Shown here piece after piece: positions 21,001-27,000 of a stretch of 64,000 nucleotides of DNA (positions are counted from its first letter, which is position 1; each line of letters begins with the position of its first letter). Position numbers: made by a program. Source of the stretch: an uncultured delta proteobacterium. GTDB lineage: Bacteria; Myxococcota_A; Polyangia; Polyangiales; Polyangiaceae. The stretch covers positions 1,107,705-1,171,704 of the forward strand of contig CAVOKF010000004.1 of assembly GCA_963696385.1 (NCBI GenBank). Reading direction: 5' to 3'.

Positions 21001-24000
21001 CGGGCACCACGGCACCGGATGGTGCCCGTTGGTCGGAAGAAACCCCCATGAATAACCACGAATATCCGACTCCCACGTTTCCGTTGGAATCCTCAATCAT
21101 CATGGTCAAAGGCGGGCGCCTCGAGGCCGAGGATGGTTCCCAGTCGCTCGCCATCCATGACGAACTCAAGATCGTGGGACGTGCCCGCGATAGCGCCCTG
21201 CGCGTCAACCACGAGACGGTCAGTCTGGTGCACGCCGAATTGCAGGCCACGCCCAAAGGGGTGCGCCTTAAGGATCGGCGGTCACGCAACGGCACCTTCG
21301 TTTCGCACCGAGGCGACGAGACGCAGATCGAAGAGGTGTACTTGGTTCGGCCGTGCGGGGTTCGCTTCGCTGCCAAGCGGTTTCGCTTCGTTCCGGAACT
21401 GCCGGAGTCCGTCGTCGTTTGTACGGAAACGCGGTTCAGAGGCCTGCTTGGTACGACGCCCGAGATGCAGGACCTTTTCTCCCGGATCGAGCGCCACGCG
21501 TGGGGTTCTCTGTCGATCTTCATTGGCGGAGAGACCGGCACGGGAAAGGAGCGTGTGGCTCGTGCCATTCACGAAGCAAGTTCGAGGTCTCGTAAACCGT
21601 TCGTGGCCATCAACTGCGCAGCCGTATCGCCTAACTGTCTCGAGAGCGAACTGTTCGGACATGTTCGAGGCGCGTTCACGGGGGCGGACCGAAATCACCC
21701 GGGTGTTTTTGTCGAGGCGGACGGTGGAACTCTCTTCTTCGACGAGGTCGCTGAAATGAGCCGCGACATGCAAGTGAAATTGCTCCGCGTTCTCCAAGAG
21801 CATGAGGTCCGGCCCGTCGGTGGCACCCCGCGCAAAGTGGACGTCCGAACTCTCTTCGCGACCCACGTCGATCTTGCGGCGGCCGTGAACCAGCGCCTAT
21901 TTCGACACGACTTGTACCACCGCATCACCCAGGCGCGCATGGAGATCCCGCCACTTCGCCGTCGGCTCGATGATTTACCGCTGCTGCTGGAGGACATTCT
22001 GCGGGACCTGAAACGTCCCGACGTGACGTTCGACGAGGCGGCCATGGAGCTGTTACGGGCGCGCAATTGGCCAGGCAACGTCCGCGAGTTGCACTCGGTC
22101 GTGGCGTGCGCTCTCGACGGCTTCTCAGGGTCGAGGCTTACGCCCCAAGAGCTCAGCGCGAGCCTACCATCCGCCCAGCCGCTCCGCCGCGAGACGGGCG
22201 AGTACGATGCGGCGAAAGACGAATTCGATCGGCAGTACTACGAAGCCAAGTACTTTGAGCATCACGGCAACGTTTCGCAGATCGCGCGAGCCGCTGGCAA
22301 GGACCGAGCGACGGTGAGAGCGGCGCTCCGGCGGTTTGTCTTGCTTGAGCCCCCTGCGGCACCCCAAGCACCCCCATTGCTGAACCATCGCCCACCCGAG
22401 CGGTGGTTTCTTCCGACTCGGTTCGTGCGGAAGGGCGCGCGCGCTTCGCCGTGAACTCGTATGCGCAGGCGGCACCAATCGAGCGAGAGCTTCAGCGGCG
22501 CCCTCGTCGTGGTCCACCGCACGGCGGGATCGTGATCCACGGCACGGCCTGAAGGGGCGGCCGCGGGCGGCGGGATCGTGATCCAGGGGGGCGCCGTGGA
22601 ATGCGCGATCGAGGGCGTCTCGCCGGACGCTGGCGTCGATGTCCAGGCGTCGATGCAGCGAGTGCCGGAAGTGGTTCACGCCTGCCGTGAGCGCGCTCGA
22701 TCACCAAGTCGTGTGCGGAGAGGGGTGCCGCGGCCAGCGCCGCAACCGTCAGGCGCGCCGGAGGCGGCGCAACGACCTGGACGAGCAGCGGGCCGACGAG
22801 CGCGCACGCCAGCAAAGGTGCCGGGACGGCGCCAAGGCAGCCGGATGTCACGAGCTACCCTCGGACGGCAACAGCGTGGATTTATTGCGTAAAGTACAGC
22901 AGATCGTGGACAAGGCCGCGAGCCTGTCACGAGCTACCCTCCGCCGCGATCTGGGGCGAATTCTGCGGAAAATCGGCCCTTTTGGGCCCGCCAAAGTGGA
23001 CAGAGCGGGCCTATGTCACGAGCTACCCTGCGCGCTGGAAGCTGGGGAAAACGGCTGCCGATCGGGCCTGGACCTGGACAGCGTCACGGGCCGGTCTCGT
23101 GCCGGGTGACGAGTCGTGGTGGATTCGCGGCCGTGACCGCCGCTGCTCAAGCCGAGCGCCTCGTCGCCGTCGCCGATCTCGGCGAGGGCCTGTCGCGGCT
23201 GCGCCTCGCCGACGCCTGCGCGCTGGCCGCCATGCGCGCGTCGCTCAAGCAGCACGGCCAGCTCTCCGCCGTGCGCGCGTTCGAGCGGGATGGCGCCGTC
23301 GAGATCTTCGACGGCTTCAAGCGGCTACGCGCCGCGCGAGGGCTGGGCCTTCGCGATCTGCGCGCCGTCGTCACCGACCTTGGCGCCGTCGATGCCACCG
23401 TGCAGATGCGCGAGCTGCACGCTGGCCGCGGGCTCACCGCGCTCGAGGAGGCGTGGATCGTGCGCGCCCTGCATCGAGAGCATCACGTGACGCAAGGGGC
23501 GATCGCTGCGCTGCTTCGTTGCCACAAGAGCTGGGTCTGTCGCCGCCTGATGCTGGTCGAAGCGCTCGATTCGTCGGTCCAAGCCGACGTTCGACTCGGG
23601 CTGCTCGCGCCGCGGGCAGCGATCCTCGTCGGCGCGTTGCCACGTGGCAACCAGCCGGCGGTCTCCGCGGTCGTCATCCGTCGCGGGCTCACCGTGCGGC
23701 AGACGGCCCTCTTGGTGCGCGAGCTCGCGGACGACTCGGGGCCGGGGCATGAGGCGGTGCTGGCGCGCTGGCGCGACGGGGGTCGGCCTGCGCGCCGCGG
23801 CCGCCCACGCACGGCAAGGAGCATCGCCGAGACAATCGCGCTCGACGTGACGACCATTCGACGGAGCGCGGGGCGACTTCAGGCCTGTTTGGCCGGGATG
23901 CCGCTCGACGCGTTGGGACCCGCCGCCGACGTCGTGGGCCCCGATCTCAGCAACCTCCATGGCGTGTTGGGCGGCCTGATGAAAACGATCACCGCCGTGA

Positions 24001-27000
24001 CCGAGAGAGCGAGCAGGGCATGACGGTGCACTGGCGCTCTCGCGAGGAATTGATCCACCAGGTCGTCGTGTTGACGGCCCAGGGGATGAGCCGGCGCGCC
24101 ATCACGCGGGCGCTGGGGGTCAGTCGGAACACGATCGAGAAGATCCTTCGGACCCACGGTCGCGAGCGCGACGACGGGCACGCCGCGCTGGCCGCTGCGC
24201 CCGTGCGCGCGCCGCGTTCCCGCAAGATCGACGCCTACCAGGGTCGCGTGAGCGAGTTGCTCGCGCGCTACCCGGACATCACCGCGCAGCGCGTGCTGGA
24301 GATCCTCAAGGACGAGGGATTCCAAGGCGGCTACACCGCCGTCAAGAAGCAGATGCGGCGCGTGCGGCCAGCGGCCAAGCCGACGCCGAGCCTCGAAGCT
24401 CCGGTGTTCGGACCGGGTGAGATGGCCGAAAACGATTGGTCGCCCTACACGCTCACGTATACGACCGGCCTCTCCGAGACTGTGCAGCTGTTCTCGTACG
24501 TCCTGGTCTATTCGAAGCGCAAGTCCTTCGACGTCTTCGGCTCGCCGGACTTGTTCGCGCTCATGGACGGCCACGAGCGCGCCTTCGCGCGCTTCGGCGG
24601 CTGCGCCGCGGGCTGCAAGTACGACAGCCAAAAGCCCGTCGTGCTCCGGTGGGAAGGCCACCAGCCCATCTACAATCCTCGGTATCTCGCCTTTGCCGCG
24701 CACTACGGCATTCAGCCCGCCGCCGTGCGAGGAAAACCCAACGCCAAGCCGCGCGTCGAACGCAGCTTCTGGGAGCACGAGCGATCGTTTCTCAACGGCC
24801 GCTCATTTCGCGATCGCGACGACTTCGCCGCGCAGCTCGCCGACTGGCTCGTTCGCGTCGTCGACCCGCGCAAGCGTCACGGGCTGTCCGCCCTCGATCG
24901 GTTTCGCGACGAGGCGCCTCATCTGCGGCCGCTGCCCAAGCATCCGTACGACACCGCCCGGGTCACGTATCGACTCTGCAGCATCGACGGGTACGTCGAA
25001 TGGCTCGGTAACCGCTACGCCGTGCCGTACGACCATGTGACCGACTTCCTGCCGCTGCGCATCACGCAGACGGAGCTGTTCGTCTACGGGCCGAATCTCG
25101 CTTGCCTGGCGCGCTATGAGCTGCGACCGCGCGGACGCGGCGACAAGATCGATCCGCTCGGGCTGCATCCTCGCCCAGAGAGCCGGTCGCCCATCGACGT
25201 CGACAAGCTGCGCGCCACCTTCGAGCAGATGGGCGACGGGGCCGCCGCGTTCCTGCTCCAGCTCTCGGGCGCCCACGTGACCCGTGTCTGGACCCACCAC
25301 GCCCGGCAGATCCTGCTCTTGCGTGCCCGCTACGACAGCGCCGACGTCGACGCCGCCCTCGCGCACGCCGTTCGGTTCGGCGCGCTCGACGCGGCCTCGG
25401 TCGAGCGCATCCTCGCCCGACGCGCTCCGCCCCGGACCCTCGACGAGTACGTCGCCGAAGACACCGCCAAGCGCATCGATGACGCGCTCGGTCCCGTCGT
25501 CACACGCCCCCGCGATCTGGCCGAGTACGACGCTCTGCCGCTCGCCACCCGCCGCCCCGTGGAGACCGCCGATGGCCAAGACCAAAACGGATAAACCAGA
25601 CTCCAATGACCGGGTGACCGGCCCGGCCTCTGACGAGGCCGTCGTGGTGATCGATCGCCTGCGCCGGCACCTCGGCTACTTGGGCCTCTCCCATACGCTC
25701 TCCACGCTCGACGACTGGCTCGCGTGGGCCACCCGCGAGCGACCCGGACACACCGCCCTGCTCGAGCACGTCCTGGCCGCTGAGGTCAATCACAAGTCGG
25801 CCGCACGCCTGGACCGGCGTATCCGGGTCAGCGGCCTGGTCGAGCGAAAGACACTCGAGGCCTTCGACTGGGACTTCCAACCCTCGATCGACAAGAGCCT
25901 CGTGCTGGAGCTCGCCCGCCTCGACTTCGTCAGGCGCCACGACGACCTGGTCATCACGGGAAAGAGCGGCACCGGCAAGAGTCACATCCTCAAGGCTCTC
26001 TCCCTGCGCGCCTGCGTGCAGGGCATCTCCCTGCGCTACGCGCGGTGCGTCGACCTGCTCGCCGACCTGCACGCCGGCCTCGCCGACGGCACCTACCCCC
26101 GACGCCTGAAGGCCTGGGCACGACCCGACCTGCTCGTCATCGACGACGTCGGCCTGGGGCAGGTGCGCCAGCGCGACGACGAGCCCACCGCCGCCCATAC
26201 TCTCTTCAACCTCGTCGATCGCAGGCACGGCAAGCTCTCGACCGCGGTCACCTCCAATATCGATTTGCGCCAGTGGGGACGCTACCTGGGAGACGCGACC
26301 GTCGCCGCCGCCATTCTCGATCGGCTCGCCATGCATGCCATTCGTATCGACATCGACGGACCGAGCTACCGCCAGCACGTCGCTGCCGAGCGTGCCGGCA
26401 AGCCGGTCGCACCCACTCGGGCGACGGCGCCGTGAGGCGCCCGCGCCGCGTTCCACCCGCTCCGCCTCCGCCCCGCGTCCCGGACCTCGTCGTCGCGCCG
26501 GAGCTCGCCTCCATCATTCTGCTCGAACACGCGCTCGACCTCGCTGCCGACGCGCTCTTGGCCGAGCACCAGACGCTCATCGACGACTTCCATAGGCCAC
26601 GCGACCAAGGCCCTGTCGTCTTCCTCGCCCACACGATCTGCCGCAGGGCCGCCACCTTGCGCGAAACGCTCTGGCGCTACCGCCACGCCGTCCGCGAAGC
26701 GGCGATGCCACCCGCGCACGATCCCACCGACGACAACACCTTCTGATAGCCGGACTCCCGCACTGAGCCGCGGGCCCGAGCGCTCGCGAGTCCTACCGGC
26801 GTCTTGGCGGTTCCCCCCTTCGCCCGGCCGAGCACCTCGGGGTGAGCCACTGGCCCTGACGCGCGCCCTTTCCGATAGCCAGGGGTGGGTCACGATCCCG
26901 CCGCTGCCGCCACCCCGACCCCGGCGACGGGTGGATCACTTCGGTCGCCAGAAGTGGATCACTCTAAAGGCGCCGCTGAAGGTTTCGGTGCGGAACTCCG

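Follow-up and report, generated by a model that had tools for sequence, protein, structure and literature searches.

Gene content and ends of the element

The window, the whole 64,000-nt stretch of DNA analysed here, carries an insertion sequence of the IS21 family, recently active and 4,492 bp long (Table 1). Its true limits, set by the terminal tips, are 22490 and 26981; the limits of 22495 and 26976 given in the first-pass annotation were those of the alignment only. The five genes described before were confirmed within the transposed unit; their starts and stops overlap or lie close together.

Table 1. Features of the insertion sequence in the window and its near-full copies in the genome
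Feature	Position	Strand	Description
Entire insertion sequence	22490..26981	+	Limits of identity across six copies; inverted-repeat tips
Left terminal inverted repeat	22490..22502	+	CTTCAGCGGCGCC, 13 bp; read from sequence; same tip on all copies and two 1-kb derivatives
Left-end repeat sites (three)	22509..22586	+	Read from sequence; cores GTGGTCCAC (22509-22517), GTGATCCAC (22532-22540), GTGATCCAG (22578-22586)
Zinc-ribbon protein	22639..23109	+	156 aa; residues 6-30 form a Cys4 ribbon, followed by a long basic helix
ParB/Noc/KorB-like protein	23133..24023	+	296 aa; GTG start; HTH_ParB above cut-off; fold matches
istA	24020..25594	+	DDE transposase, 524 aa; ATG overlaps the ParB stop (ATGA)
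istB	25572..26435	+	AAA+ helper ATPase, 287 aa; overlaps the istA end by 23 nt
Fifth gene	26432..26746	+	104 aa; GTGA overlap with the istB stop; acidic tail, terminal Phe
18-mer	26789..26806	+	AGTCCTACCGGCGTCTTG; right non-coding part
Right-end repeat sites (three)	26885..26962	+	Read from sequence; kept in the alignment of relatives' right ends; cores GTGGGTCAC (26885-26893), then GATCCC, and GTGGATCAC (26931-26939 and 26954-26962)
Right terminal inverted repeat	26969..26981	+	GGCGCCGCTGAAG, 13 bp; from sequence
Copy in the window	C4:1130194-1134685		Reference for identities
Copy	C7:1375564-1380059		99.6%
Copy	C5:1497577-1502065		99.2%
Copy	C7:1429156-1433648		98.8%
Copy	C5:1524801-1529289		98.6%; at contig end
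Copy	C4:1167242-1171704 (window 59538..64000)	-	97.2%; runs into contig end

The inverted-repeat ends with internal repeats noted earlier were also observed: inward of its 13-bp tip, each end carries three GTGATCCAC-type sites, which are IS21-type internal repeats and, by analogy with IS21-family ends, putative IstA binding sites. GGGATC precedes both inner left sites, giving the dyad GGATCGTGATCC; this extra word is carried by the inner sites, two at the left end and one at the right. Left-end dyads lie beside the inner repeat sites and adjoin the upstream genes in the window type and in types from Planctomycetota alike, the latter having a dyad at the left end only. The half-sites that make up these dyads are those of the presumed IstA sites, so the dyads may be IstA's own. 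Words of the terminal sites are enriched 14-48 fold 5' of the first gene (12-16 of 32 distinct relatives). The tips read CT...AG in the window type and TGT...ACA in Planctomycetota relatives of the same lineage. The 18-mer of the right non-coding part occurs without mismatch in every copy that holds this part, and likewise in the two 1-kb derivatives and a distant relative (L037). In relatives, four genes occupy 4.28-4.42 kb.

Copies in the genome and mobility

A blastn comparison of the element with the whole genome revealed six near-full copies of 97.2-99.6% identity, matching the earlier count of six copies at 97-99.6% with two of them (C5:1524801 and C4:1167242) at contig ends. Pieces at other contig ends had been mentioned as well, and an additional partial copy, the 3-kb right-hand part, is indeed cut by the start of contig C3. 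Target duplications of 7-8 bp flank three of the six copies (CGGGGGAG, GTCCTGA and CTCTAGTA), as previously stated, and also two 1-kb non-autonomous derivatives that retain the layout of the end sites; none was found around the window copy at 22490-26981. The window region is rich in other insertion sequences, with IS91, IS66 and IS4-type transposases.

All five frames are open in only three copies (the window copy, C7:1375564 and C5:1524801), and a +1 C frameshift in istA is common to three copies. In the copy at 59538..64000 of the window, over 35 indels of 1-2 nt were counted. They are restricted to the side closest to the contig end, which holds the zinc-ribbon, ParB and istA genes, and are probably assembly error rather than decay. 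An internal-deletion copy (C7:1349133-1352324) has lost the zinc-ribbon and ParB-like genes and keeps istA, istB and the fifth gene intact; no target duplication was found at this copy. Copies are clustered: C7 has three in a stretch of 85 kb, C5 two in 27 kb and C4 two in 37 kb, and one Planctomycetota contig carries many in 180 kb. Among relatives in Planctomycetota genomes, 19 of 33 copies have target duplications of 5-8 bp. No sequence common to these 19 duplications was found, which makes a sequence-specific target selector unlikely.

Proteins encoded by the element

The family matches listed in the first-pass annotation (IstA, IstB, HTH_ParB, ParB_N, a weak NinG match and a fifth gene without family) were all reproduced. 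IstA reached 202.2 bits for NF033546 (cut-off 160) and matched IS5376 IstA structures with an E value of 1.8e-23; the aligned part, residues 18-338, takes in the stretches DW, D-x-x-K and K-x-x-V-E-R. IstB scored 215.6 bits against 200 for NF038214, with E values of 1.6e-55 for PF01695 and 9e-35 for IS5376 IstB structures.

The GTG start of the ParB-like gene was picked to fit the lengths of its relatives (296-305 aa). Its product exceeded the cut-off for HTH_ParB (PF17762; 32.9 bits versus 22.6), this region aligning with the DNA-binding domains of Noc and ParB, and stayed below the cut-offs for Pfam ParB_N (17.1 versus 26.3) and for NCBIfam Noc (51.6 versus 315) and ParB (45.5 versus 58.45). 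The structure model (pLDDT 91) had Noc, CTP/CDP-bound ParB and KorB as its top solved folds, and the profile matched Noc 7ng0 with an E value of 8.5e-21. This identifies the 296-aa protein as a genuine member of the ParB/Noc/KorB fold.

Comparison of 50 ParB-like sequences revealed R24, G61, R64, H131-K132-S133-W134-V135, N173 and Q174 as invariant residues and A67 as nearly so; the recognition helix is likewise invariant. The GxxRxxA pattern is kept in the N-domain and aligns with GERRxRA of Noc and ParB. The glutamate of GERR is replaced by a nearly invariant phenylalanine (F62), at the position that is alanine in the E93A mutant 7o0n and glutamate in wild-type chains. A CTP switch is uncertain because the motif supporting CTP hydrolysis is incomplete owing to this substitution. 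Two C-terminal helices (residues 231-255 and 264-295, pLDDT 84-94) were modelled as a hairpin, which is a candidate dimerisation domain.

No ParA was identified by Pfam or NCBIfam among the five genes of the element, and neither a palindrome common to the subtypes nor a parS-like site was found. No DNA site was identified for the ParB-like protein: apart from the terminal repeats and the tip, which vary among subtypes although its recognition helix does not, no word is enriched 5' of the first gene. No plasmid record matched at E <= 1e-10, and defence models gave no match. The ParB-like protein is unlikely to act in partition.

In 30 relatives, the zinc-ribbon protein keeps all four cysteines (C6, C9, C26 and C30) without exception. 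Its model (pLDDT 80) consists of the ribbon and helices 28-67 and 76-112, and matched no solved fold at E <= 0.001; the weak NinG match covers the zinc ribbon only. A neighbouring IS21 group has the zinc-ribbon gene and lacks ParB. Pfam, NCBIfam, PHROGs and PADLOC assign no family to the 104-aa product of the fifth gene. This gene (dN/dS 0.22-0.57) was found in 11 of 89 loci (eight distinct sequences), none of them outside the subclade closest to the window, so the proposed five-gene IS21 subgroup has to be replaced by a conserved core of four genes: zinc ribbon, ParB-like, IstA and IstB.

Linkage and co-divergence with the transposase

A total of 89 loci were collected with ParB as bait, three of which stop at a contig edge. 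In all 86 assessable loci istA directly follows the ParB-like gene; these loci represent 45 distinct ParB sequences (<90% identity) and at least seven phylum labels. Approximately 845 protein clusters (50% identity) match the ParB-like profile at E <= 1e-30. There are hundreds of related loci, not just the seven counted earlier. A search of 400 other genomes of the phylum with IstA as the query found ParB in all four matches that had IstA, IstB and readable upstream DNA, and the two ParB-less matches were truncated remnants.

Pairwise identities of ParB and IstA are correlated (r = 0.925; 29 elements, down to 26-35% identity). In an IstA tree, built by quick search, 32 of 35 ParB-linked sequences form one clade with a support of 99, the other three lying apart beside a long branch. 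The dN/dS ratios, which are rough because dS is 0.4-1.8 and partly saturated, were 0.12-0.45 for ParB, 0.11-0.47 for IstA and 0.34-0.63 for the zinc-ribbon gene; the ParB-like gene is under purifying selection. With gene starts in relatives set by a rule, 26 of 35 distinct elements have an overlap between the stop of ParB and the start of istA (median gap -4).

Constant linkage, co-divergence of ParB with IstA, purifying selection and stop/start overlap together indicate that the extra genes are fixed parts of the element and not cargo, and the zinc-ribbon and ParB-like genes are very probably integral to it. The earlier reading of the extra genes as accessory transposition factors is supported in part: these two lie inside the transposed unit and co-evolve with IstA as fixed components. 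A direct role in transposition, bridging of the ends or target choice with IstB is conjectural, and a sequence-specific target selector is unlikely. The element does not fit the class of transporter insertion sequences with variable passenger genes, since all 86 assessable loci have the same two genes in one order and these co-diverge with IstA. The lineage with a zinc ribbon and ParB ahead of istAB is apparently large and undescribed: full-text searches of the literature, outside ISfinder, brought up no account of such a gene order.

Possible roles of the ParB-like protein

Because the zinc ribbon and ParB always stand ahead of both transposition genes, ParB-type proteins may play a part in transposition. 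We favour, with slightly less than even confidence, an explanation in which the ParB-like protein acts as a gatekeeper on the element's own DNA. By homology, the steps of cutting, joining and target capture would fall to IstA and IstB, as they do in IS21 and IS5376. The four core genes would be co-transcribed, and the ParB-like protein, whose stop codon overlaps the istA start, would be made just before IstA. The ParB-like protein would bind the ends with their multiple repeats or the control region on the left and, possibly through a nucleotide switch in its N-domain, limit or time istAB expression and transpososome assembly, much as KorB acts at the promoters of RK2 or as regulators encoded by upstream ORFs act in IS1 and IS911. 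The zinc-ribbon protein may be its nucleic-acid-binding companion. The fifth gene is an addition of one subclade, and the SSB-like acidic tip of its product may interact with host proteins of replication or repair. Points against this reading are that no DNA site was identified for the ParB-like protein, that the left-end dyads may be IstA's own and that the CTP-hydrolysis motif is incomplete. That the main effect is negative or gating is judged a little less likely than the explanation as a whole. The data favour neither a negative nor a positive effect of the ParB-like protein.

It is conceivable, at rather low confidence, that a DDE transposition machine here has the ParB-like protein as a true third subunit, a nucleotide-gated clamp loaded at the ends that controls synapsis or hands the ends to the IstB-bound target, with the zinc ribbon as loader or lock. 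If this is true, the ParB/CTP-switch family gains a role in transposition beside chromosome partition, nucleoid occlusion and plasmid gene control.

A strictly positive subunit is somewhat less likely again. Here a ParB-like dimer or clamp, loaded at the repeat sites, would bridge both ends and aid synapsis by IstA, and the element would hardly move without it. ParB proteins bridge and condense DNA. Three sites per end, GGGATC dyads on the inner ones, the retention of this layout in the 1-kb derivatives, production of ParB in step with IstA and retention of the gene across the whole clade are consistent with such a role. However, the dyads vary among subtypes while the recognition helix is invariant, and Planctomycetota types show the dyad at the left end only. 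Furthermore, two proteins are described as required for IS21-family mobility, and canonical IS21 and IS5376 need just IstA and IstB (PMC12486865).

A role in target choice or immunity, in which the protein would spread or slide from the element and, through IstB, mark nearby DNA as a poor target or favour local hops, is improbable. The clustering of copies on C7, C5, C4 and the Planctomycetota contig points to it, as does the description of IstB as a target-capture ATPase (PMC11208146); but the clusters may reflect a permissive region that is rich in insertion sequences generally, and the 19 target duplications of relatives share no motif.

That both genes are cargo with no transposition role, such as a plasmid-partition remnant or a host-directed regulator, is very improbable: ParB-family genes are common on mobile DNA and the internal-deletion copy lacks both, yet that copy has no target duplication, order and linkage are constant across the 86 loci and their phylum labels, ParB is translationally coupled to IstA, co-diverges with it and is under purifying selection, and neither ParA nor a plasmid record was found within the limits given above.

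Comparison with known systems

Members of the IS21 family have a two-gene layout and a length of ~2-2.6 kb (ISfinder/TnPedia descriptions), target duplications of 4-8 bp and ends of the form 5'-TG...CA-3'. The window type has IstA, an adjacent IstB, multi-site ends and a short duplication, and departs from the two-gene layout of ~2-2.6 kb and from the TG...CA ends. It resembles IS21 and IS5376 in the order istA then istB, in inverted-repeat ends with internal sites and in short target duplications; unlike them, it is twice as long (4.49 kb), with two conserved genes before istA and, in the window subclade, one after istB.

A DNA-binding protein is encoded before the transposase on the same transcript in IS1 (InsA), IS911 (OrfA) and Mu (repressor, Ner). 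The regulators of IS1 and IS911 stem from the transposase's own DNA-binding part, whereas the ParB-like protein comes from the unrelated ParB family. The three-plus-three end sites of the window element are reminiscent of the ends of Mu.

The best sequence and fold matches are chromosomal ParB/Spo0J and Noc (Noc 7ng0; CDP- or CTPγS-bound ParB 6sdk and 7bnk). GxxRxxA and the helix-turn-helix are common to them and the ParB-like protein, which has its own invariant HKSWV helix; they differ in that the window element has no ParA partner and no parS-like site was found.

In TIGR-Tas loci, a ParB-like gene (TasParB) shares its operon with a module of mobile elements that targets DNA (PMC12045711). 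Its partner there is the RNA-guided TasA rather than IstA/IstB.

KorB of RK2, a CTP-dependent repressor clamp, shares the ParB N-domain and helix-turn-helix with the ParB-like protein (structural matches to 8qa8/8qa9 with E values of 3e-7 to 5e-7). It differs in sequence (15-16% identity), in having an operator and a KorA-like partner, neither of which was found for the ParB-like protein, and in the GERR glutamate that the latter lacks. KorB is encoded by a mobile element and serves control rather than partition, and it is the model for the gatekeeper reading favoured in this study.

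Structure of the element

The insertion sequence carries five genes in one direction (coordinates in the table). An earlier placement of the element at 22495-26976 reflected the limits of an alignment; the real ends lie at 22490 and 26981, where the tips, CTTCAGCGGCGCC and GGCGCCGCTGAAG, are inverted repeats of 13 bp without a mismatch. Inward of each tip lie three sites that share the core GTGATCCAC, and an extra GGGATC at the two inner left sites and at the innermost right site gives the dyad GGATCGTGATCC. The genes are tightly packed: ATGA is common to the stop of the ParB-like gene and the start of istA, the end of istA overlaps istB by 23 nt, and GTGA is common to the istB stop and the start of the fifth gene. 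An Rfam scan of window positions 22300-27200 (E <= 1) returned no match, and a promoter and terminator scan found no promoter-like site; terminator-like sites occurred at chance level.

Features of the IS21-family element, in window coordinates
Feature	Position	Strand	Size and remarks
Whole element	22490-26981	+	4,492 bp
Left repeat sites	22509-22517, 22532-22540, 22578-22586
Right repeat sites	26885-26893, 26931-26939, 26954-26962
Zinc-ribbon gene	22639-23109	+	156 aa
ParB-like gene	23133-24023	+	296 aa, GTG start
istA	24020-25594	+	524 aa
istB	25572-26435	+	287 aa
Fifth gene	26432-26746	+	104 aa

Copies, mobility and probable short derivatives

A blastn comparison across the eight contigs of the genome (handles C1 and onwards; the window lies on C4) revealed six near-full copies, 97.2-99.6% identical, two of which reach contig ends. 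Partial copies comprise the right-hand 3 kb of the element, placed where C3 begins (C3:1-3008), a copy at C7:1349133-1352324 that lacks the segment equivalent to 22666-23967, which takes away the bulk of the zinc-ribbon gene and almost the whole ParB-like gene, and a 192-bp fragment on C1. A diverged relative outside the window, C4:98623-100628, is cut off inside istA and shares 50% (zinc-ribbon), 68% (ParB-like) and 78% (IstA) identity with the element. Target duplications of 7-8 bp were found at three copies (CGGGGGAG, GTCCTGA and CTCTAGTA) and are absent at the window copy and at the copy with the internal deletion. A flank exchange with another copy was considered as the cause of the missing duplication at the window copy and rejected, no matching flank being present among the readable copies; the left flanks of three copies are unreadable at contig ends.

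None of the five frames is interrupted in three copies (the window copy, C7:1375564 and C5:1524801). In C5:1497577, C7:1429156 and the C3 copy, istA is broken by the same additional C, at window position 24808. Since two of these three frameshifted copies have intact target duplications, either a defective copy was propagated in trans or the change spread by conversion. In the second copy in the window, 59538-64000, over 35 indels of 1-2 nt were counted, every one within the zinc-ribbon, ParB-like and istA part that lies nearest the contig end; the istB and fifth gene of this copy are free of them. These indels are probably assembly errors of an unpolished contig end and not decay. The high copy number of the element breaks assemblies at its copies, and three contig ends of this genome fall inside copies.

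Outside the window, C5:738917-739920 and C2:55525-56528 are two elements of 1,004 bp that are 99.8% alike and contain no credible gene. They have the same tips and three-plus-three repeat layout as the window element, at 72-82% identity, and their own 7-8-bp duplications, GCGTCCT and CCGCGTCC; they appear to be non-autonomous derivatives that were mobilised in trans. An 18-mer, AGTCCTACCGGCGTCTTG, is present at window 26789-26806, C5:739571 and C2:56180, and is exact in every copy holding the right non-coding part and in both short derivatives. The same 18-mer is exact at L037:4066-4083, a related locus of another genome whose IstA is only 60% identical, and is absent from closer relatives.

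Copies of the element cluster in this genome and in others, possibly marking a permissive region, given the abundance of other insertion sequences and of gene fragments in the window. A nest of these occupies 26885-27352, 28586-30124, 32775-35166, 37186-38523, 44332-46035 and 57659-59458, with transposases of IS91 type, IS66 type (two) and IS4 type (two). The ORF spanning the element's right end encodes the C-terminal portion of a DUF3363 protein, and two short-chain dehydrogenase genes in the region are truncated.

Distribution of the gene order

Among 400 other genomes of the phylum, the ParB-like query gave a match at E <= 1e-20 in eight. The nine loci found have a zinc-ribbon ORF upstream and istA-istB downstream, the exception being one locus cut by a contig end. 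A scan with one genome per species gave 309 confirmed stretches, of which 79 loci were kept; more than 20 of the 79 come from one Planctomycetaceae genome, and their labels are Myxococcota, Planctomycetota, Gemmatimonadota, Acidobacteriota, Thermodesulfobacteriota, Chloroflexota, Actinomycetota and others. With the window and the nine loci, this makes 89 loci gathered with ParB as bait, holding 45 ParB sequences below 90% identity to each other. The gene directly after the ParB-like gene is istA in 86 of 86 assessable loci; the other three stop at a contig edge. The zinc-ribbon gene was detected by profile in 68 of the 89, and inspection by eye of 9 of the remaining loci found it in all 9, sometimes split between frames. 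The fifth gene is present in 11 of the 89 loci (8 distinct), exclusively in the subclade nearest the window. Planctomycetota elements measure 4.28-4.42 kb, have TGT...ACA ends and four genes, and leave only 110-170 bp after istB.

A search with IstA as query, free of the ParB bait, in 400 other genomes found ParB in four of four matches that had IstA, IstB and readable upstream DNA. The matches without ParB were two truncated remnants (L135 and L137), and one further match begins inside istA. In wider databases, 1,464 proteins among 8,000 candidates matched the ParB-like protein at E <= 1e-5; the best 120 of the 1,464 are 62-99% identical, come in the main from contigs 1-7 kb long, and many bear the name 'ParB/RepB/Spo0J partition protein', a label that is misleading for genes in this IS21 context. 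About 845 clusters (50% identity) matched the family profile at E <= 1e-30; canonical ParB and Noc reach only 54-78 bits with the same profile, which suggests a subfamily-specific count. Our analysis bears out the first-pass annotation with regard to the element, its copies, their duplications and the five genes, and extends it to relatives across 89 loci.

Proteins of the element

IstA and IstB pass the NCBIfam models for the IS21 transposase (202 bits, cut-off 160) and the IstB helper (215.6 bits, cut-off 200), and align with the solved IS5376 proteins (E 1.8e-23 and 9e-35, respectively). By this homology, and going by PMC10122671, PMC11208146 and PMC12486865, the two would act as in IS5376.

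The 296-aa protein passes Pfam HTH_ParB (32.9 bits vs 22.6) and is under the cut-off for ParB_N, NCBIfam Noc and NCBIfam ParB. Its structure, predicted with 50 relatives, has a pLDDT of 91; the nearest solved folds are Noc, CDP- or CTPγS-bound ParB and KorB, and the family profile matches Noc at E 8.5e-21. Across the 50 relatives the GxxRxxA motif is kept, G61 and R64 being invariant and A67 nearly so. A nearly invariant phenylalanine replaces the glutamate of GERR, the residue at which the 7o0n structure carries its E93A mutation. Also invariant is the helix H131-K132-S133-W134-V135, which corresponds in the alignment to helix two of the ParB helix-turn-helix.

In the 156-aa protein, an invariant Cys4 ribbon (C6, C9, C26, C30) precedes a long basic helix. 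The Pfam NinG match of this protein is confined to the ribbon, a fold search of its model against the PDB found no solved fold at E <= 0.001, and the ESM Atlas places it in clusters without a name, of which one has the automatic label NinG-like. In several near-identical copies of one Planctomycetaceae genome, L069 among them, the first gene has its two zinc-finger modules out of frame with each other, which is either a frameshift or a long-read error; in L051 both modules are in one frame. A strong hairpin with 11-12-bp arms lies 55-108 bp upstream of this gene in the distant relatives L050, L056, L057, L022 and L097, and may block read-through or hide the start.

For the fifth protein no family was found in Pfam, NCBIfam, PHROGs or PADLOC, and its ESM Atlas score of 0.75 is a weak lead only. 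An acidic tail with a terminal phenylalanine ends it in seven of eight distinct relatives (window, L025, L027, L028, L030, L040 and L048), the tails being DDNTF, DDDLPF, DDERF, DDDILF, DDELF and DDDDFPF. The C-terminus of the host's own SSB is GGDDDIPF; the tail may be a mimic of this SSB tip, through which replication and repair proteins are recruited.

The extra genes as part of the element

Pairwise identities of ParB and IstA from 29 elements are correlated at r = 0.925, down to 26-35% identity; for IstA and IstB the value is r = 0.944. A quick IstA tree of 52 rows placed 32 of the 35 ParB-linked rows in one clade (support 99); the other three adjoin a long branch, and all may have one origin. 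In nine pairs with dS of 0.4-1.8, which is partly saturated, dN/dS was 0.12-0.45 for ParB, 0.11-0.47 for IstA, 0.07-0.33 for IstB, 0.34-0.63 for the zinc-ribbon gene and 0.22-0.57 for the fifth gene. The stop of the ParB-like gene overlaps the start of istA in 26 of 35 distinct elements (median gap -4, with starts set by rule). No ParA is present among the five genes, PADLOC defence models did not match the three extra proteins, and a search of a plasmid collection with the ParB-like protein gave nothing at E <= 1e-10. Taken together, co-divergence, the common clade, selection, the overlap and the lack of ParA, defence or plasmid matches make it very unlikely that the genes are cargo. The earlier claim that they are the element's own was right, as co-divergence with IstA, selection and overlap indicate.

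A neighbouring IS21 group (L105, L110, L113, L115, L116 and L117) has a related zinc-ribbon gene directly before istA and no ParB gene. The zinc-ribbon gene therefore seems to have joined first, ParB being inserted later between this gene and istA. This three-gene form seems to be undescribed as well.

Role of the ParB-like protein

We favour a reading in which the ParB-like protein acts on the DNA of the element itself, as gatekeeper or regulator, because its production precedes and accompanies that of the transposase, as with upstream regulators in other elements, because it has the fold of KorB-type control proteins, and because it adjoins the left control region. A search for a common ParB site found none: the 250-320 bp preceding the first gene were examined in 32 distinct elements for palindromes and for enriched 7-mers, and enrichment there was limited to the terminal repeats and the tip. 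A CGCGATC...GATCGCG dyad occurs in several Planctomycetota types, L017 and L046, and not in all elements. Each subtype has dyads adjoining the inner left site that differ in sequence and are built from halves of the presumed IstA sites; in contrast to these variable dyads, the recognition helix of ParB is invariant.

The first-pass annotation had proposed that the ParB-like protein and its companions are accessory transposition factors. The ParB-like protein may act positively in end synapsis, or may work with IstB in target choice or immunity. A complex prediction of the zinc-ribbon protein, IstB and the ParB-like protein scored ParB at 0.00 in two runs without controls, and is neutral on binding. 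The 19 target duplications collected from four genomes have no common motif, so a sequence-specific target selector is unlikely. In those genomes 14 of 33 copies have no duplications, and swapped flanks in two pairs of a Planctomycetota genome (L074/L075 and L070/L090) show recombination between copies.

Comparison with known IS21 elements

Full-text searches of the literature turned up no account of a ParB-family or zinc-ribbon gene belonging to an IS21 element; a named ISfinder or TnCentral entry may exist. PMC13139386, the one paper in which all the terms occur, is unrelated. The role of the extra genes is directly testable, given the small size of the element, its clear ends and its natural non-autonomous derivatives. 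ParB-family proteins are now regarded as DNA clamps gated by CTP that act in partition, in nucleoid occlusion and in the control of plasmid genes; if one such clamp served a transposon, this would be a new use of that fold, and the finding is of clear interest to the transposition and ParB/CTP-switch fields. IS21 is a structural model for transposases that work with an AAA+ regulator. Unlike IS21 as described, which is a two-protein system, this large natural lineage keeps two further predicted DNA-binding proteins in the same operon, under at least seven phylum labels.
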